This document shows, in pieces, positions 3,818 to 26,249 of a DNA stretch of 64,000 nt. The translations under genes and the position numbers were made by a program. The DNA is from a virus. Lineage: Duplodnaviria; Caudoviricetes. The stretch spans positions 1-64,000 of IMG/VR virus record IMGVR_UViG_3300020049_010822; one strand, written 5' to 3'. The notes beneath the pieces are model-generated. The model was not told the origin of the DNA. It made no database searches and saw only the letters and a list, made by a program, of their open reading frames with translations. Every line of letters starts with the position of its first letter. Within the stretch, counting starts at the first letter, position 1.

Positions 3818-4126
3818 ATGGGAGGACAACCAACGAAAAAAGTAGTTAGAATAAAACCCAAACTAGATCCTGATCCGGAGAACTACGGATGGGAGCCTAT
3901 GTGCACTGCAAAGAACATGGAGATCTATATTATCAGAACTCCTGAATTCAATCATGTATTAGCACGGATTTCTCCTCGTTCCCAACCATTTTGGGTACGT
4001 GTCAAGTATCTTTCTTTCTTTCATTGGAAAATATACCTTTGGTGTATCGGTACTAATAAACAAACTAAAAGAATTTGGTTAGGACCTGAATTAACTCAAG
4101 AAATTTTAAGTAATATCCCGATTTAG
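3818..4126 (+). CDS. hypothetical protein
   Basis: 102-aa ORF. Confidence 0.55.
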   Translation: MGGQPTKKVVRIKPKLDPDPENYGWEPMCTAKNMEIYIIRTPEFNHVLARISPRSQPFWVRVKYLSFFHWKIYLWCIGTNKQTKRIWLGPELTQEILSNIPI

Positions 4127-4135
4127 TCGGGAACC

Positions 4136-4267
4136 GGCACTATAGCTCAGCGGTAGAGCACCTTATTATAGATCTGTTCAGCAGTATGTAATAGGAGGAA
4201 TGAACGGTTTCAGCACTATAGGTGACTGTCTCAATTCGATACACTGGTTCGAATCCAGTTAGTGCCG
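4136..4267 (+). tRNA. aberrant tRNA-like RNA (132 nt) with expanded anticodon/variable region; possible UCA loop
   Basis: acceptor GGCACTA/TAGTGCC, D-arm GCTC-AGCGGTA-GAGC and T-arm ACTGG-TTCGAAT-CCAGT are canonical, but ~60 extra nt lie between D and T arms. Confidence 0.7.
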
Positions 4268-4308
4268 CCTGTTAATCAAAAAACAATTGATCGGTTAGAA
4301 AGATCATA

Positions 4309-4342
4309 CCCCAACTGTGTCTAAAAGTAGATGCGGTTGGGG
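4309..4342 (+). terminator. strong stem-loop downstream of tRNA-like RNA
   Basis: CCCCAACTGTGTCTA-AAAG-TAGATGCGGTTGGGG; no clear U-tract. Confidence 0.45.
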
Positions 4343-4371
4343 ATTATTAAAAAATTAAAACACATTTCAAT

Positions 4372-4743: not shown

Positions 4744-4838
4744 CCGATTTTTAACATGCCAATACTATTATTCCTTTTATTGGGATTCTTGGTGCATTGG
4801 ATAATGCTCAAGATCACTGACCACTTAAATTCCCTGAA

Positions 4839-6256: not shown

Positions 6257-6329
6257 GATTCCATAGCTCAATGGATAGAGCACCGCCCTTTTAAGGCGGG
6301 GGTTTGAGGTTCGAATCCTTGTGGGATCA
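6257..6329 (+). tRNA. tRNA with TTT (Lys) anticodon, Arg-like body
   Basis: cloverleaf GATTCCA/TGGGATC, D GCTC-AATGGATA-GAGC, anticodon arm CCGCC-CTTTTAA-GGCGG, T TGAGG-TTCGAAT-CCTTG; CCA not encoded. Confidence 0.9.
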
Positions 6330-6482
6330 CAACTATTTATTTTGTTTTGCGACAGTCCAGCAGTCGATGCTATTCCAGAGCGCCAATTCTTTTAACGAAT
6401 GTGGTTTTTGTAAGTTCAGGCGTAACTGGACATCTCCCCTACCGAAATTGGGGGCTGGCTGTCATTTAAAAAACCTTTTAAC

Positions 6483-9336: not shown

Positions 9337-10194
9337 ATGGATAACATTCGAATTGTTCCAACCATTCAGGCCAGAGAACGGCCTAAACCCACCTTCGTTC
9401 AATTCTTTTGGGCGTTGGTACTCATGTTTCAGAAACTTGAACGCAAACAGCGTGTCCATGTGGGCATTGCCTTCTTAACGATCACCATTCCGATCGGATT
9501 GTTATCGTTCGCTTTGATTTCTGAAGTAGTGGAAACTGCAGACAATCTACCCAAGCCAGTTCAATCTGTAGTATCTCCACTATCTCTTGCGCTACCTATA
9601 TCAGATCCAGCGCCTACAATCTTCCCTGCAGGAGAAACTGAAGTTCCGGATGATTCTGAGTATGTGCCGGAAGAGGATGAATTAGAAATTCCTAAGCCCG
9701 CGCCAAAGAAAAAGAAGAATGATGCAGCTCCTAGAGGAGTAAGGGAAATTATCCCCGCAAGCGCCGAAGCTTATATTGCAAAATATTCTATATATGCAAA
9801 AGAGTGCATGCGAAAATATAAAGTACCGGCTAGTATTAGTCTTGCGCAGGGATTAATTGAGAGTAATAGTGGTAAGAGTAATCTTGCCGTGAATGCTTTC
9901 AACCACTTTGGCATGAAGTGTTTTTCTAAAAACTGTCATAAAGGGCACTGTGTTAATGCCACAGATGATACCCACAAAGACTTCTTTCGCAAATACAAAT
10001 CTGTTGCGGAATCCTATGACGCACATGGAGTGTTGATTAGTGGAGGTAGGTATGCTTCTTTAAAAAAATACGGAAAAGATTACCGTAAATGGGCGTATGG
10101 ATTGAAATCGAAGGGGTACGCTACTGACAAGCTGTATGCTGAAAAATTAATTGGAATGATTAAACGCTATGGTTTGGACAGATATGATCGCTGA
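9337..10194 (+). CDS. membrane-anchored GH73 glucosaminidase (FlgJ-like peptidoglycan hydrolase)
   Basis: AQGLIES, NHFGMK, GYATD, YGLDRYD motifs; N-terminal TM and Pro/Glu linker; TGA is a true stop at domain end. Confidence 0.9.
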   Translation: MDNIRIVPTIQARERPKPTFVQFFWALVLMFQKLERKQRVHVGIAFLTITIPIGLLSFALISEVVETADNLPKPVQSVVSPLSLALPISDPAPTIFPAGETEVPDDSEYVPEEDELEIPKPAPKKKKNDAAPRGVREIIPASAEAYIAKYSIYAKECMRKYKVPASISLAQGLIESNSGKSNLAVNAFNHFGMKCFSKNCHKGHCVNATDDTHKDFFRKYKSVAESYDAHGVLISGGRYASLKKYGKDYRKWAYGLKSKGYATDKLYAEKLIGMIKRYGLDRYDR

Positions 10195-10238
10195 TTACAA
10201 CATGGGGGGCGGCTAACCAAAACCGCCCCCACATTAAC

Positions 10239-11246
10239 ATGACACTTCAAGAGTTTCGGAATCACATGAATCCGCGCTTTTCCTACATGGAGAGCGCGAT
10301 AGATTCTATCTACTTTGCAATTCAAAAGAAACAGCACTGCTTGCTGTTCGGACCTGGTGGCCACGCTAAATCCACTATTGTGGAAGAAGCCATCAAACTA
10401 TTTATCGGAGAGGCTGCGTTCTATAAGGACGTATTCATCGCAAACTGCGCTGAGGACATGGACAGCACTCCCATTATGGGTTATGATGATATCCCTTCAC
10501 TTAAAGCTGGTAAGCTCAAAAAAGTGTTGGATGATACCGTCTTCCTGAAAAACGATTACGCCATATTGGAAGAAGGCCTAGATGCCCCTCCAATGCTAAT
10601 CAACGCACTCAAAGACCCGCTTATGCGCGGTTATGTATGTATCAATGGCACTTGCATGCCAAATCGCCTTAAATCTTTGTTTATCTGCACGAACGTAGAC
10701 CCAGTAAAATGGGCGGGCAAAGACAATTCACGCTTAGCGCTTCTCCAACGCTTCACCTACTCTATTGAGGTGAAATGGCCATCTTACGATTACAAACATT
10801 GGGAAGGCTTTTTGAAAAAGAGGAGCATTCATAATCCCATTATTGCAAAGTTTGCCGAGATAGCCCATATTGAAAAGTGGGAAATCTCTCCTCGCTCTGT
10901 TGAAAAGATGTCTGGACTCTATACAGAGTTCGGAATTCAAGCCCTCGAAAACTTTGAACGGATACCAGCAAATGTCCTTCAAAAGTGGAAAGACTATGAA
11001 AAGAACATTCCGTTCATAAAAGAGATTTGCAATCTTCAGCTGAGGGTGGAAGCCATGCGCACCATGCCTCTGCATGAACGTGGAAATGAGATGATACGCA
11101 TAACGAAAATTGCCCGCTCAATCAAGGGTATTCCTGTGGATGGCGGCTTCTCTGAGCAACTCAAACAATGTCTCGTGGATGCGAAAGCCATCGCTAATGC
11201 GGCAGTGGAAGCCGCAGACCAAGTTACAAAAACCGTAGTAATCTAG
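10239..11246 (+). CDS. MoxR/RavA-like AAA+ ATPase
   Basis: GPGGHAKS Walker A, ILEE Walker B, CTN sensor, ALLQRF Arg finger; adjacent VWA gene. Confidence 0.8.
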   Translation: MTLQEFRNHMNPRFSYMESAIDSIYFAIQKKQHCLLFGPGGHAKSTIVEEAIKLFIGEAAFYKDVFIANCAEDMDSTPIMGYDDIPSLKAGKLKKVLDDTVFLKNDYAILEEGLDAPPMLINALKDPLMRGYVCINGTCMPNRLKSLFICTNVDPVKWAGKDNSRLALLQRFTYSIEVKWPSYDYKHWEGFLKKRSIHNPIIAKFAEIAHIEKWEISPRSVEKMSGLYTEFGIQALENFERIPANVLQKWKDYEKNIPFIKEICNLQLRVEAMRTMPLHERGNEMIRITKIARSIKGIPVDGGFSEQLKQCLVDAKAIANAAVEAADQVTKTVVI

Positions 11247-20369: not shown

Positions 20370-20429
20370 TCAGGCTGCTCACTCCCCGCTGTAGTTTTAG
20401 AGGGAGATTGAAAACTTAAAATTGAATAC

Positions 20430-21050
20430 ATGGAGAAGATTGCAAACCGCTGGTTCAAAGGCTTTATGATTGCCACCACGGTTACATTGCTTGTTATCAC
20501 TGGTTTTGGCTGGCACCACCAGTTCAAAATTAACAACGAGCAAAAATCGACAATAAATCAGCTAGAAGCACAGGTAGAAATACTTAGCGAAAATATGCTG
20601 AAATTTAAGGCGAGCATGGATACTTTGAGAGAAACCCACCCCTACATGAGTAAAAAGTGAAGGGGCCGGAAGACCTCGTGTGCCAGCGGCACCTTTTTCG
20701 GATTCTTGCTATATACTCCCGTTGATACGGCTGTAAGCAAGGAGTTAGTAATGGCTTTATCAGATTACTCTGGGCCTAAAGCTAAAATTAATTCTCTGAA
20801 ACGACATTACAATCATAAATCAAAGCACTATTGCGGTAAAGCCGTTGATCTTGCTTGAGATGAAACTGTGATTAGTTTCTTAATATCTGATGAAGGACAG
20901 ACGTGGCTACAAAAGCACGGGATTACATTTTACATTGAAGGCAAACCCGGATCGAAGCGAGTATCTAAATATCTCGGCGACCAGAAAGCTGCCCAATTTG
21001 TATTCTTTAATCCGGATGCAACAGCAGATCACGTACATTTGAATGTATAA
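20430..21050 (+). CDS. membrane-anchored peptidase M15-like (Zn D-Ala-D-Ala fold) cell-wall hydrolase, TGA-recoded
   Basis: reading TGA 20658 and 20856 as sense joins TM + coiled coil to SKHYCGKAVD...DHVHL (SxHxxGxAxD / HxH). Confidence 0.8.
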
Positions 21051-21098
21051 AAGGGACAGGGGGAGTAGTCCATCTCCCCCTTTTCCCAAGTTAACATT

Positions 21099-21368
21099 AT
21101 GGACACTTTAGTAACTATAGTGCTTACTTTTGTTGGCACTAAAATCGCTGAATACCTCTGGCAGGTACTACAATCTATCCCCGTAGCCGTAACAGCTACA
21201 AAACAGACAATGACAGACAATGCAACAAGTAATTTACCAAGAGAATCAGGAGACATCTCGATTGTCGGGATTCGCCGCAATAGAAATGGTGGTTACACAG
21301 CCGTGGACCATTACATGAATACGGGACGGGCAGATATCATTAATCTCCGAAACGGAACTCAAAGATAA
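21099..21368 (+). CDS. hypothetical protein (overlaps polA N-terminus)
   Basis: 89 aa with hydrophobic N-terminus; uncertain. Confidence 0.35.
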   Translation: MDTLVTIVLTFVGTKIAEYLWQVLQSIPVAVTATKQTMTDNATSNLPRESGDISIVGIRRNRNGGYTAVDHYMNTGRADIINLRNGTQR

Positions 21369-23175
21369 AATATCCAAGTATGAATACATCGCATTGGATA
21401 CGGAAACTGTTGGTGATTTTACTGATCTCTATGATCGTAAGGTTGTCATGCTCCAAATGGGTAATGATAGAGAACAGTTTGTATGAGACACTCGCAAGAG
21501 TTCACCTCAAGCTTTTTTACATTGGCTCTCGACCAGAGATACGGTTATTATTGGGCACAACATAAAATATGACTACCAAGTCATAAAGACAAACTATGAT
21601 GTGACCTTAGAGAATGTTTGAGACACCATGCTCGCTGCGCAAATAGCAGAGTGTGGATTAGACGCCCCCAAAGGCCACTATACCTTGGAGCAGTGTGTTG
21701 CACGATATGTGCGACCATATTATACTCGTCAAGGTAATTTATTCGCCCCAACAATCACAAAAGACATTAGGAGCTCCTTTGCTCAAGTCAGCAACGCTCC
21801 CTTTACCGCAGAGCAAATTTACTATGGAGCTTTCGATATTGAAACTTCATATGCACTGCATAAAAAATTACTCCAGATCGGAAAACAAGACGATCTACTC
21901 CGTATATTTGAGCTAGAATTTGATTTTCTCAAAGTACTAGGGGACATGGAGTTAAATGGTGTTTATCTAGATGCAGATAAGTGGTTAAAAACCGCTAGAT
22001 CTGTAGAAGAAAAGACCGCAGGAATAAGAAAACAACTAGACGAGCTGGAACCAATAAATTGGGATTCCCCTAAGCAAGCAGTTGTCTACCTGAAAGGTGT
22101 GGGAGTTGATGTGCTAATCCTGGATAAAAAGACCGGGGAAATAAAAGAGAGTGTAGGCAAAATCGGCCTCCAAAAACAGACAGCCCGGTTTCCCATTCTC
22201 AATACTTACCTTGAGTACAAAACGCTTAAGAAAAAAGCAGTTGCGTACGGAGAAAAGTTTTTAAGGCACATCAACCCCCATACGGGTAGAGTTCATAGCT
22301 CGTTTATGCAAATAATGAGGACAGGTCGAACATCCTCCACTAGTCCTAATATACAAAACATCACAAGAGGAGACGTGTATAGGTCCGCATTTATGGCGGA
22401 AGAGGGGAACACATTGGTTGTGGCAGATTTCTCTAATCAGGAGATGAGAGTGATAGCAGACAAGTCAGGGGATCCAAACCTTATTGCCGCGTTTAAAGCT
22501 AACAGGGACGTTCACCTTGAGACTGCTAAGCTTACTTTTGATAATCCTGATTTAGAAAAAGAGTCTGAAGAAAGACAAATGGCTAAGTCCATTAATTTTC
22601 TTGCCGCATTTGGTGGAGGGGCTTCTAAACTTTCTGAATCCTTTGGCATAGCTTTAGCTAAAGCCAGATCAATTTTAAAAATGTATTTCCTAGCCTTCCC
22701 CTCTTTAAGAGCTTATTTTGATGCTCAAGGAGTTCTAGCAAAGGCTAATGGTTATGTACTATGTAATCCAGTTTCTGGACGTAGGTCATATATTCCATTT
22801 TGGAATAAGTACAAAAAATACCAAAGTTATCTAACAATAGCAAAAGCAAAGGGCCATGATCCGCATCCTAAAATTGTAGATGACTATTCATACTATGATG
22901 CTAAAATACAGAGGTGGTCACAAAATTTACCAATCCAATCAACCGCAGCTGATATAAGTAAAAGAGCGGGCGTTCTTCTACGTAAATATAGTAAGAAGAT
23001 TCCGTTCAAGATTATAATATTCGCACACGACGAGTGGGTACTTGAGTGCCCGCTTGAAATCAGTCAAACCGTTTCAAGAATACTAGAGAAGTGTTGTCTG
23101 GAAGCTTCTCGTGAGTATACAACTCATCTAGACATTCCGGCGAAAGCAATTGTATCACTAACATGAAAAAAGTAA
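21220..23175 (+). CDS. polA: family A DNA polymerase with 3'-5' exonuclease, TGA-recoded
   Basis: ExoI ALDTET, ExoII GHNIKYD, [TGA]DTM, motif A ADFSNQEMR, B RQMAKSINF, C HDE; TGA at 21316, 21484, 21619, 23164; start 21220 or 21286. Confidence 0.95.
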
Positions 23176-23182
23176 TTAAAAC

Positions 23183-24274
23183 ATGATTGAAAGTACCATT
23201 ATTTTTGCTATCTTCGGTGTCGGGATGGCTCTGTTGATGTGGCGTATGTACCATGTTGCAAAAGACGACCCAGAATTAGCTGGTCTTGAACCGGCAGCCC
23301 TCTTGGGTAAATCATTCATCAAATACAATCTAACGTACTTGATGGGTCTTCAACTCTGCGCACTTATCGCAGAAGCTGCCCTTTTGGGTTCAGTTGTTGA
23401 CGAAAAGACTAACGTGGCGGTCAGGATGTTCTTACATCTTGTGATGGCTGCAATTAGTACTGTGGGGGCATTTGGCTTAGCCAAGTTCTTTGGTGAATTT
23501 GTGTATGTATTTGTAGCTTGGCCAAAAAGAGCTCCTGGAGTTAGCATCGGTCTGATGATGAGTAATTTTGTACTAACTGCAATCGCTTTCTTCTTTGCAA
23601 TTGGAGCGCCCATATTTAACATGTTAGCTCTAGCTAACGCACTCCATAATACTGTCCAGTTGGATGTATTTATGGCGGCACTTCAGGTGGAATTAGGGTT
23701 CAAGCCTTTAGCTTACCTAACCTATATTATCCAATTAAATGGATTACCTGCTAACTACGCTCCGTTTGCAAGTCTGCATTCGGGTATGGTATCCTCCTTG
23801 GGCATCACTTTCTTCCATTTAATATTGACGTTTTGGGAGATTGTCTACACCCTTAAACTGGCCTTGGAATCCAAAAGTCTTCTGGATACTATTCTTAATA
23901 GAACAGTAGGCCTCGACGACAAAGAAAAGAAAAAGAAAGAGGATAAAAAGGAAGATAAAGAGGACAAGGGTAAAAAGATAGACGGTAGAGTACAAATCGA
24001 GGCCGCTCTTGGTTTCTTGAAATTAGATTCCAAGGATGTGGCAAAGTGGACAGAGAATCTTTTGGAGTATTTAGATGTTGCCACACACGATCAAAAAGCA
24101 GTGGCCACCAGAACAGCGACTATCGCTGCGCTGCATTTCCAGATAAAGAGTTTGGATCGTGGTAAGAAAACTGCGGATAACCGTACCCCTGAAAAACTTG
24201 CGGATGACATTCGTAAAGAGCTGGAAGGGTGGACCAATAACAGCATCACCTTACCAAAAGCAAAAAACGGATAG
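23183..24274 (+). CDS. multi-pass membrane protein with charged C-terminal domain
   Basis: about 6 hydrophobic segments then KE-rich linker. Confidence 0.7.
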   Translation: MIESTIIFAIFGVGMALLMWRMYHVAKDDPELAGLEPAALLGKSFIKYNLTYLMGLQLCALIAEAALLGSVVDEKTNVAVRMFLHLVMAAISTVGAFGLAKFFGEFVYVFVAWPKRAPGVSIGLMMSNFVLTAIAFFFAIGAPIFNMLALANALHNTVQLDVFMAALQVELGFKPLAYLTYIIQLNGLPANYAPFASLHSGMVSSLGITFFHLILTFWEIVYTLKLALESKSLLDTILNRTVGLDDKEKKKKEDKKEDKEDKGKKIDGRVQIEAALGFLKLDSKDVAKWTENLLEYLDVATHDQKAVATRTATIAALHFQIKSLDRGKKTADNRTPEKLADDIRKELEGWTNNSITLPKAKNG

Positions 24275-24312
24275 GGGGGCACGTTTGTTTAAAAGATAAA
24301 TGTCCCCATTAT

Positions 24313-25059
24313 ATGGACAAGAAACAGTGTGACAGGTGCCTCATAGAAGCTACAGGCTGTGCTCAGTGTGGCACTATTCCAGCTTCTTACGCGTTTATCA
24401 ATTCTAAACCTATATGGAAAGCATCCCATAAGGGTAGATGTTGGGAATGTGCTTTAGAAAAAGCTGTGGATATTAATGAGGTCTGTAGGTCTTGCAATCA
24501 GGACAACCATGAGATGAAACTTAGGGAAGTAGTCCTCTGTAAAGCATGCGTTTCTGAATACGCTCTTGTCTGCAAGAAGTGTAAAGAAGATACGGATGTT
24601 TATGCAGAAGGGTCAAACTATTGCCCTACGTGCTTTTATGGTGATGATTTCAAGACCGTTACTATAGACTCACGCCATCCAACTGAGGTTTGTGTCTCCT
24701 GTGGGGAACTGTCACACTTAAATAAGGACAAAGAATGTAAGAATTGCTACGTGGAGAAAACCATGAGTAATGCTTATAATGATGATTGGGGCAAGACAAA
24801 GGTCTGTCCTGAATGTCGGAAAATCACCAAACGAGGTAACAAGATATGTACAGCTTGTCAATTGAAAAAAAGAAGTGTAGCCACCTGTTTTGGGTGTTCT
24901 TCTCGTTTCCAAAAGACCAGTAGGCACGATACATTTTGTCAAGCCTGCAAGAGAAATCTTGAAGTTGGTATATGTACTTCTTGTCGAAGAAATGATGTTG
25001 AGAATTTTGATGAGCGAGGCTGGTGCACAAAGTGCCAGTACGATAACGGACCATTGTAA
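24313..25059 (+). CDS. poly-Zn-ribbon Cys-rich protein
   Basis: 15 CxxC motifs in 248 aa. Confidence 0.75.
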   Translation: MDKKQCDRCLIEATGCAQCGTIPASYAFINSKPIWKASHKGRCWECALEKAVDINEVCRSCNQDNHEMKLREVVLCKACVSEYALVCKKCKEDTDVYAEGSNYCPTCFYGDDFKTVTIDSRHPTEVCVSCGELSHLNKDKECKNCYVEKTMSNAYNDDWGKTKVCPECRKITKRGNKICTACQLKKRSVATCFGCSSRFQKTSRHDTFCQACKRNLEVGICTSCRRNDVENFDERGWCTKCQYDNGPL

Positions 25060-26249
25060 TGAGAGATAAAATACAGGCTGAGGCGCTCGCCGCATGAAAA
25101 GGAGCAAATAAGTGGGGAACAATCATTCTCCCTACTTCACTTGGGAAAACATACGTGGGTGTAATGGCTTATAAGTCTTTCGAGAATCCCCCAAAGACAC
25201 TAGTCATTACCTCACGTGTGCCCATAGTGCACCAGTGAAAAGAAACTTTTGAAGATAAATTTGGAATTAGCTTTCCAATTGATTATCTTTGCATTCAGTC
25301 CGCCTACAAGATAGACGCTGAGTATGATTTAGTTATTATAGATGAGGTACATAGATCCTTATCTCCGGAGTACCGAAAGGTATTTCAAAATATAAAGACT
25401 AAGCATTTAATCTGTTTAACCGCAACCCTGCCAGAAGAAAAGGAATACCGTGATTATTTGGACTCTATATGTCCTGTAGTATATTCTAAGACTTTGGCTG
25501 AGGTGATAGAAAATAAAGTTATACCTGAGTTCACTATTTATAATTTAGAGGTACCTTTATCTCCTAAAGCAGGAGGAAGATATAAAATATTTGATTCTCA
25601 ATTTAATGAGGGTAATATTCTCTTAAACAAGATTTTAAATACTAATGAACTTTATAAGTATAAGTATACTAATACATTTGATCTAGCTAGAAATAATGTA
25701 AATTCTACTGATAAAGCTTTAGCTGCCGCATGTAAAAAGTATTGGGGTGGGATGCAGATGAGAAAGAATGTGGTTTATAGTAATCCATCTAAACTCATAG
25801 CTGCCAGACAAATTATAGAATACATCGGTCCTGAACGAAAATGACTGTTGTTCACCAAATCTATAAAGTTCGCAGAAGAATTGCAAGGAGTGGTTGGAGG
25901 TGGTATATATCATTCTAAAATGAAAACGCAGGAGAGGAGTGATATCCTTGAGCGTTTTAAAGAAAACGAATTTAACATTCTTATCGCAGTAGACGCCCTT
26001 AACGAGGGAGTAAACGTAGTAGATGTGGATGCTGCTATTTGTCTTTCCGGTGTTTCCACCGAATTGACAAATACCCAACAAATAGGACGGCTTTTACGTC
26101 AAAAAGAAGGTAAAAAACGTCCCATATTCATTAACCTCTATTCTAGAAACACTGTTGAAAAAGGTTGGGTAGACAAAAAAACAGTTGGAGCTGGATTAGG
26201 AAAATACGTCAAATGGATAACAAACGTAAGACAAGTCCAAACCGGTTAG
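25059..26249 (+). CDS. superfamily 2 (DEAH/SSL2-like) helicase, TGA-recoded
   Basis: PTSLGKT, DEVH, LTAT, LNEGVN, QQIGRLLR in one frame via TGA 25095, 25236, 25842. Confidence 0.92.

Follow-up and report, generated by a model that had tools for sequence, protein, structure and literature searches.

A tRNA-framed phage RNA with a conserved long hairpin in place of the anticodon loop

A 132-nucleotide (nt) RNA with the upper body of a tRNA is encoded at positions 4136 to 4267 (plus strand) of the Caudoviricetes record IMGVR_UViG_3300020049_010822 from IMG/VR. The stretch analyzed here, called the window throughout, is the first 64 kb of this 99,851-bp record (CheckV completeness, 99%). A first-pass annotation, made from the letters of the window, took the RNA for a candidate opal-readthrough factor. 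Here, we describe the RNA, four homologues of it, and the genes around them, and we read it, with moderate confidence, as a stable, non-decoding, tRNA-framed RNA showing a conserved hairpin, like RNA1 of phage T5.

The RNA starts 9 nt past the stop codon of an upstream open reading frame (ORF; 3818 to 4126) on the same strand. Rfam tRNA model RF00005 matches 4136 to 4267 on the plus strand with 46.6 bits (gathering threshold, 29; E value, 8.7e-07 for the whole window); posteriors in the arms are near 1, and 76 nt stand for 15 model positions. As the first-pass annotation had stated, the acceptor, D, and T arms are all perfect and enclose an oversized middle, with 82 to 83 nt between the D and T arms versus the expected ~22. 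An anticodon arm of 5 bp and 7 nt with U33 and a purine at 37 is lacking. The minimum-energy fold is a cloverleaf (−40.3 kcal/mol, z = −2.7). A permissive Rfam scan of 4050 to 4350 returned tRNA as the sole family, with no group I intron model, and default ARAGORN on the window made no call at 4136 to 4267, reporting a tRNA-Lys(UUU) alone. The features of the locus are as follows.

4136 to 4142, plus strand: acceptor stem, 5′ strand, pairing with 4260 to 4266 (7 of 7 pairs; pairs 6 and 7 change on both sides among the five homologues).
4145 to 4159, plus strand: D arm, 4-bp stem and 7-nt loop with G18 and G19 (Rfam alignment and fold; 3 of 4 pairs covary).
4162 to 4170, plus strand: lower stem of the long arm, 5′ strand, 9 bp with 4187 to 4195 (pair probabilities, 0.86 to 1.0).
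4171 to 4172, plus strand: GA of the internal loop, opposite A at 4186 (GA in all members).
4173 to 4185, plus strand: upper stem, a U-U mismatch and then 4 bp, with the loop UCA at 4178 to 4180 (from the folds).
4187 to 4195, plus strand: lower stem of the long arm, 3′ strand (pair table of the five homologues).
4196 to 4242, plus strand: expanded variable region, 47 nt (the relatives have a 16- to 23-nt hairpin here, with a GNRA cap in three).
4243 to 4259, plus strand: T arm, 5-bp stem and loop UUCGAAU (Rfam alignment; 3 of 5 pairs covary).
4260 to 4267, plus strand: acceptor stem, 3′ strand, and discriminator G (4267), with no CCA encoded.
4116 to 4132, plus strand: small hairpin spanning the upstream ORF's stop codon, its end 3 nt short of the RNA.

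Among 5.8 billion proteins, the product of the upstream ORF had one relative (70% identity), on a 7-kb Logan contig (L061), and directly 3′ of that relative lies a 104-nt tRNA look-alike of the same design (fold z = −6.05). Further contigs of the lineage were reached through the MoxR-like protein at 10188 to 11243. The family was defined with a scanner for acceptor, T, and D arms together with a covariance model (R1) and has five distinct members.

Window, 4136 to 4267: 132 nt.
L061, 3715 to 3818: 104 nt.
L070, 2843 to 2946 (L070c): 104 nt.
L072, 3633 to 3742: 110 nt, identical in L073.
L077, 2456 to 2571: 116 nt.

These members score 66 to 111 bits with R1, and nothing else in ~320 kb of related plus pattern-selected loci exceeds 41 bits, whether ordinary tRNAs, intron-bearing archaeal tRNAs from the pattern scan, or T5 RNA1. 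Proteins neighboring the RNA on the family contigs are 56 to 82% identical. No further member came from pattern scans that covered IMG/VR, 185,579 species genomes, and metagenome contigs from JGI; an exact scan with the 5′ half returned nothing, and one with the 3′ half returned a tRNA-Cys alone. The family looks confined to a rare phage lineage. Candidates from the pattern scans were set aside as chance matches or unrelated interrupted tRNAs, those on viral contigs by sequence inspection and those in species genomes, on contig L081, and at the T5 locus by R1 (≤41 bits). A tRNA-like sequence on G002 (2315 to 2382) shares the 5′ acceptor bases but was rejected as a member: it occupies the slot that tRNA-Lys fills in the window, a long arm is absent, and its R1 score is only 24.5 bits. 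No Rfam family beyond the general tRNA model matches the family.

Homologous pairs were tabulated from each member's own minimum-energy fold, not from an independent alignment, because MAFFT and model-fitted alignments (A2 to A5) misplace gaps in the long arm. Every member folds separately into the same cloverleaf with a long arm. Across the five sequences, standard pairs fill 148 of 150 helix cells, and both partners have changed in 20 of 30 pairs; with shuffled 3′ partners, 0 of 2,000 trials reached the observed pairing (mean, 109 cells). The lower 9-bp stem has standard pairs in all 45 cells and double-sided changes at 8 of its 9 positions, and its last pair is always A-U. The internal loop is GA (5′) opposite A (3′) in four members and GA plus 3 nt opposite AAA in L077. 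In the relatives the upper stem is 5 bp long and covarying; in the window it is 4 bp plus the U-U mismatch. Folded alone, the window hairpin (4162 to 4195) has a z score of −3.1 and ensemble pair probabilities of 0.86 to 1.0. The imperfect stem of ~13 bp that had been proposed at 4161 to 4195 is therefore real, being kept in four relatives with compensatory changes. The design common to the five contigs comprises a tRNA upper body, a rod (9 bp, GA/A loop, 4 to 5 bp, and a closed 3- to 4-nt loop), and a second hairpin in the variable region.

This record of compensation bears on whether the gene is a decaying tRNA pseudogene, a former tRNA gene hit by insertions or duplications and now without function, as the first-pass annotation had allowed. 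We consider that very unlikely. The window copy is indeed the most irregular of the five: one base too many follows its D stem, and its variable region, 47 nt long and folding poorly, holds copies of 4177 to 4187 and 4137 to 4145 from within the RNA. Several tRNA genes of relatives in the lineage also have anticodon loops that are abnormal; decay, however, is at odds with helices that are all kept by compensatory changes, the inserted hairpin included, among contigs whose neighboring proteins have diverged to the identities given above. It is equally at odds with the bases of the tertiary contacts, since none of the five homologues departs from U8, A14, G18, G19, A21, or the T-loop UUCGA (alignment A2). 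Judged from this pattern of substitution, the RNA is under selection and not simply decayed.

The window copy departs from the shared design in its variable region, which only there is 47 nt long. An 11-nt near-copy of 4177 to 4187 lies at 4209 to 4219, and an exact 9-nt copy of the RNA 5′ end (4137 to 4145) lies at 4213 to 4221, each of the two individually just marginally past chance; local duplication is suggested as the source of the extra 25 to 30 nt. The extended variable arm that had been drawn at 4196 to 4242 finds a counterpart in the clear 16- to 23-nt hairpin of the relatives, but the fold in the window itself is long and not significantly stable (z = −0.7). An alternative pairing of CTGTTCA with TGAACGG (4174 to 4180 with 4201 to 4207), from which a two-state switch had been proposed, is correct as complementarity; the switch itself does not stand, as the alternative fold costs 7.6 kcal/mol and has an ensemble probability of about zero, and the relatives lack the second strand.

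The rod ends in a loop that reads UCA in the window, L070, and L072, UCU in L061, and UUAA in L077. The two pairs that close it covary (GC/UG, AU/UG, AU/UA, CG/UG, and GC/CG), so the tip is a closed 3-nt loop and not an open 7-nt anticodon loop. TTCAG had been taken for an open loop of the form U33-UCA-purine, with the unspliced long arm showing UCA and acting directly as a non-canonical opal suppressor or readthrough factor. Within the apical loop, the triplet is indeed flanked by a 5′ U and a 3′ purine, it is kept in three of five members, and the phage recodes TGA; even so, we regard this proposal as extremely improbable. The arm is ~9 bp longer than a tRNA anticodon arm, which upholds the earlier remark that, left unprocessed, it would misfit normal decoding geometry, and the 3-nt loop is closed by covarying pairs. 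The only fold offered as a switch is costly and is not conserved. Relatives replace UCA by UCU or UUAA, and the UUAA member is itself TGA-recoded, so UCA is not conserved among the recoding relatives.

The recoding has another candidate agent. The early region uses the standard code, and TGA is read as Trp to the right of ~20 kb, as had been described: in-frame TGAs at 20856, 21316, 21619, 23164, 25095, and 25842 align with TGG in related contigs, and reading TGA through lengthens the frames. L077, with its UUAA tip, shares in-frame TGAs at conserved Trp positions. TGA at such positions is shared across the lineage (window 20409 to 25842); at the equivalent of 20658, for example, eight relatives have TGA and L080 has TGG, which makes the recoding an old trait of the lineage. 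It is true that no ordinary suppressor is visible within the window, but the genome carries a tRNA(UCA) at 96383 to 96455 (minus strand; L003, 1501 to 1573), 32 kb past the window end. This is the genome's third Rfam tRNA (42.9 bits). Its loop is CU-UCA-AA on a normal 5-bp stem, its D loop is without the usual GG spacing, and its T loop is CUCGAAC, and ARAGORN misses it because both loops are odd. The acceptor stem and G73 resemble those of bacterial tRNA-Trp, E. coli tRNA-Trp being taken as the example, and because of this bacterial-type tRNA-Trp frame we place the phage in a bacterial host. By its sequence features, this tRNA-Trp-like tRNA(UCA) is likely to be the TGA-to-Trp suppressor, and it agrees with the alignment of TGA codons to TGG. 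An open 7-nt UCA loop, a conserved anticodon, and a need for recoding are what would make the 132-nt RNA an opal suppressor, and none of the three was found. UCA is not conserved and a canonical-type tRNA(UCA) lies elsewhere in the genome, both of them outcomes that the first-pass annotation had itself listed against its proposal. The 132-nt RNA almost certainly does not read UGA.

The tip might instead serve as bait, a decoy being one of the alternatives in the first-pass annotation. As an anticodon-arm decoy, the rod tip (U-UCA-G) would imitate a tRNA anticodon stem-loop, for example, that of the phage's own tRNA(UCA), and soak up a host nuclease or other enzyme. Tips of the form U-UCA-R or U-UCU-A occur in four of five members and keep the signature of U33 and purine 37, like tips occur in two other long-arm look-alikes with different acceptor stems (L070, 67 to 169; L080, 5629 to 5719), and phage tRNAs are known to counter tRNA-cleaving defenses (PMC10264068 and PMC11555353). 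We nevertheless find a decoy quite unlikely. The would-be 32-38 and 33-37 positions covary as Watson-Crick or wobble pairs and close the loop, the L077 tip is a UUAA tetraloop, the two closest members differ by UCA versus UCU, and the nuclease target is putative. Chance matches are also not rare, given that three of the 64 triplets are stop anticodons and that the tip can be read in several windows. The two look-alikes have short variable loops, arms of 36 to 45 nt, and the tips A-UUCUA-U and G-UUCAA.

The lower stem of the rod may hold a different anticodon. Its first 5 bp match a tRNA anticodon stem, and UAG at 4169 to 4171 stands at the anticodon offset. In all five members, the six bases after these 5 bp read N-N-N-A-G-A, which would give the Leu anticodons UAG, GAG, AAG, CAG, and UAG; through the 4 bp that follow, the anticodon is paired to the insert, an arrangement known from pre-tRNAs of archaea and eukaryotes, and in L072 and L077 a 1-nt bulge lies exactly at the boundary between the 5 bp and the 4 bp of the lower stem, at the nt-38 position. 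In L079, a more distant relative, the corresponding early region encodes an ordinary tRNA-Leu(UAG) whose variable arm is capped by GNRA; R1 scores this true tRNA-Leu at 23.3 bits, below the L079 tRNA-Met at 29.1 bits. Because of the 5-bp match, the boundary bulge, the AGA bases, and the tRNA-Leu(UAG) of L079, the gene probably descends from a tRNA with a hairpin inserted after nt 37.

Whether the hairpin is still removed is a separate matter. Proteins, and not the RNA itself, could excise an insert after nt 37 (4173 to 4189) and so yield a tRNA-Leu(UAG) with the anticodon at 4169 to 4171, a 5-bp stem, a 7-nt loop, and a long variable arm, a reading that we hold to be tentative and, on balance, improbable. 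Beyond the sequence pattern just described, it can draw on other phage tRNA genes with inserts of 39 to 63 nt that give perfect tRNAs after removal and on the "enigmatic" tRNA introns of Lak megaphages (PMC6784885). It has to contend with a 3′ cut that would sit inside a helix in three members, a motif that is not bulge-helix-bulge, and the presence of all four wobble bases within one narrow lineage. The spliced loop would carry A33 in the window and L072, although U33 is near-universal in elongator tRNAs, and it would carry A37, although bacterial tRNA-Leu species that read CUN normally have G37. The discriminator is G in the window RNA and L070c and A in L061, L072, and L077, although bacterial tRNA-Leu needs A73. 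The D arm is of the class I type (4 bp, 7-nt loop). Of the marks of a bacterial tRNA-Leu, a variable-region hairpin (five of five members) and UAG at 4169 to 4171 were thus found, whereas A73 and a D arm of class II, which has a 3-bp stem and a long loop, were not.

The enzymes that such splicing would call for are also missing from the phage genome. It was searched for PF01974, PF01139, and PF09414 (EndA, RtcB, and Rnl-type RNA ligase), and none was found; in the control genome, Bacteroides thetaiotaomicron, RtcB is present and EndA absent. We know of no protein-driven tRNA splicing in bacteria or their phages. That the hairpin is a true protein-removed intron, cut at the GA/A loop and the nt-38 bulge and rejoined into a working tRNA-Leu(UAG), seems doubtful to us. 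If it were true, a cut-and-rejoin form of tRNA splicing would exist undescribed in a bacterium or its virus, and the family would be a convenient substrate for finding the enzymes.

Removable inserts do seem to occur elsewhere. A pattern scan of IMG/VR found ~30 unrelated phage contigs (L011 to L060) with tRNA genes of 109 to 139 nt and perfect acceptor and T stems, and ~20 of these become canonical (5-bp stem, 7-nt loop, U33, and purine 37) once a single insert of 39 to 63 nt is removed after nt 28 or 29, in the 5′ strand of the anticodon stem. The restored tRNAs include Asn, Gly, Lys, Gln, Ile, and Glu. Many of the inserts begin with the same few bases, and in L041 and L045 the anticodon arm is intact and followed by a 46-nt insert in the variable region. 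The same removal applied to the window RNA gave no canonical tRNA: the best solutions have nt 26 missing or require A33 and a variable region of 19 to 47 nt.

Several other assignments were tried and rejected. With introns allowed, ARAGORN, which the first-pass annotation had recommended, calls a tRNA-Ile(UAU) in which the intron is 47 nt, nt 26 is missing, and the variable region spans 19 nt. This is one of ~1,000 solutions and is not common to the homologues, as ARAGORN gives Ile(AAU) with a 17-nt intron for L061; we also know of no class II tRNA-Ile, which counts against the call. Low-threshold ARAGORN calls of transfer-messenger RNA and "SeC|Leu" are noise. A group I intron would need a ribozyme core of ~200 nt or more, whereas the insert is 17 to 60 nt, and there is no Rfam match; hammerhead and other small ribozymes likewise have no Rfam match, and their core motifs are absent by eye. 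RNase III-type excision was set aside on reasoning alone, since a 2-nt staggered cut would leave no 7-nt loop.

We return to the reading of a stable, non-decoding RNA. The intact tRNA body would allow host RNase P, 3′ trimming, and CCA addition to cut the RNA from the early polycistronic transcript and to protect it; processing by host tRNA enzymes is proposed because that body is intact, and the body would thus be a frame for processing and stability. By analogy with T5 RNA1, the 132-nt RNA would accumulate unspliced. The conserved hairpin, with its GA/A loop and tip, would be the working part and bind a putative protein or RNA partner, and UGA recoding would be served by the tRNA-Trp(UCA) at 96383 to 96455 and not by the 132-nt RNA. 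A non-decoding role is supported by the A at the U33 offset in the window and L072 and by the switching of the discriminator between G and A.

Several points weigh against this reading. Unspliced accumulation is argued by analogy alone, and the partner of the hairpin is putative. The invariance of anticodon letters 35 and 36 and of nt 37 (AGA), with a wobble position that varies with compensation, fits a spliced tRNA-Leu(NAG), as does the bulge at the nt-38 position in L072 and L077, and the ~20 other long phage tRNAs that become canonical on insert removal make removable inserts seem real. The window copy, with two nt after the D stem and its weakly folding 47-nt variable region, is the most aberrant member. 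Finally, the comparison covers five sequences from one lineage, of which two (L061 and L070c) are close.

Around the RNA, the flanking ORFs have no relatives in IMG/VR and no Pfam family. The small hairpin at 4116 to 4132 also lies upstream of the L061 copy, with compensatory changes, and is absent in L070, L072, and L077; with L061 the only relative that has it, the hairpin is probably part of the upstream ORF and not of the RNA. A strong 15-bp hairpin at 4309 to 4343, ~40 nt 3′ of the RNA, may be the end of the early transcript; the A/U-rich run after it lacks a clean T tract. The L077 copy likewise has a strong hairpin 3′ of it.

The window's tRNA-Lys(UUU) at 6257 to 6330 is normal (66.9 bits). 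At the syntenic position G001 has a tRNA-Met(CAU) and L070 has an aberrant tRNA with an 8-nt loop (4749 to 4824); this slot therefore exchanges its tRNA between close relatives. The L070 tRNA and those at L074 (4481 to 4559 and 5778 to 5849), L067 (G002; 2433 to 2509), and L061 (6049 to 6122) combine normal bodies with abnormal anticodon loops (8, 12, or 6 nt, or a stretch of 16 nt). As read by ARAGORN, the "anticodon" has four letters (CUAA) in L070 and two in L074, and the loop core U-AAA-G is common to three of the abnormal-loop tRNAs of the lineage.

As a small RNA family backed by covariation, these sequences join the poorly understood phage tRNA look-alikes such as T5 RNA1, and their compact motif (9 bp, GA/A loop, 5 bp, and a tiny loop) offers a handle for pull-downs and mutagenesis. 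They also matter for annotation: default ARAGORN misses the gene and intron-mode ARAGORN calls a tRNA-Ile with a 47-nt intron, and both are wrong.

Two more likenesses to known systems can be drawn. In the engineered tRNA scaffold of E. coli, a foreign hairpin placed in the anticodon arm is processed and stabilized by tRNA enzymes; the same logic is proposed for the window RNA, although the scaffold is man-made. Species 1 and 2 of phage T4 are stable RNAs, as the window RNA may be.

Recoded Zeta crAss-like phages carry tRNA-Sup-TCA (PMC12386605). They share with the window phage TGA read as Trp and tRNA genes of their own, but their suppressor tRNAs have the ordinary cloverleaf shape, the anticodon arm being a 5-bp stem with a 7-nt loop, and in the window phage that role fits the tRNA at 96383 to 96455 and not the 132-nt RNA.

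Lak megaphages have "enigmatic" introns in tRNA genes (Devoto et al. 2019; bioRxiv 10.1101/356790, PMC6784885). Shared with the present case are oversized phage tRNA genes, an alternative genetic code, and inserts far too short for group I self-splicing. The Lak inserts, however, are defined against insert-free copies and leave normal tRNAs, whereas for the window family no insert-free copy was found and insert removal gives no canonical loop (A33 in two members). The tRNA introns that proteins splice in archaea and eukaryotes have a bulge-helix-bulge motif (review, PMC4090602), with which the window family shares an insert at the 37/38 offset, a 4-bp anticodon-insert helix, and unpaired bases at both helix ends; it differs in having bulges of 2 nt (opposite an unpaired A) and 0 to 1 nt instead of 3 and 3, in the lack of EndA in the genome, and in a host judged to be bacterial.

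The closest counterpart is T5 RNA1 (rna1, T5s03; NC_005859, 30501 to 30644), annotated in its record as a "tRNA-like stable RNA with unknown functions" and folding into a tRNA frame that bears a ~59-nt long arm plus a variable arm. The two have no detectable homology, with no R1 match on the T5 locus (L085) at an E value of ≤0.01; the T5 arm has other internal loops, and its D arm is leucine-type, whereas that of the window RNA is of the class I type. The hosts differ as well, that of T5 being E. coli. In design they agree: both are phage-encoded, lie among tRNA genes, and have acceptor, D, and T arms, a variable-arm hairpin, and a long hairpin replacing the anticodon loop, and a tRNA frame with a long conserved hairpin in place of that loop is found in the window RNA and all four of its homologues.

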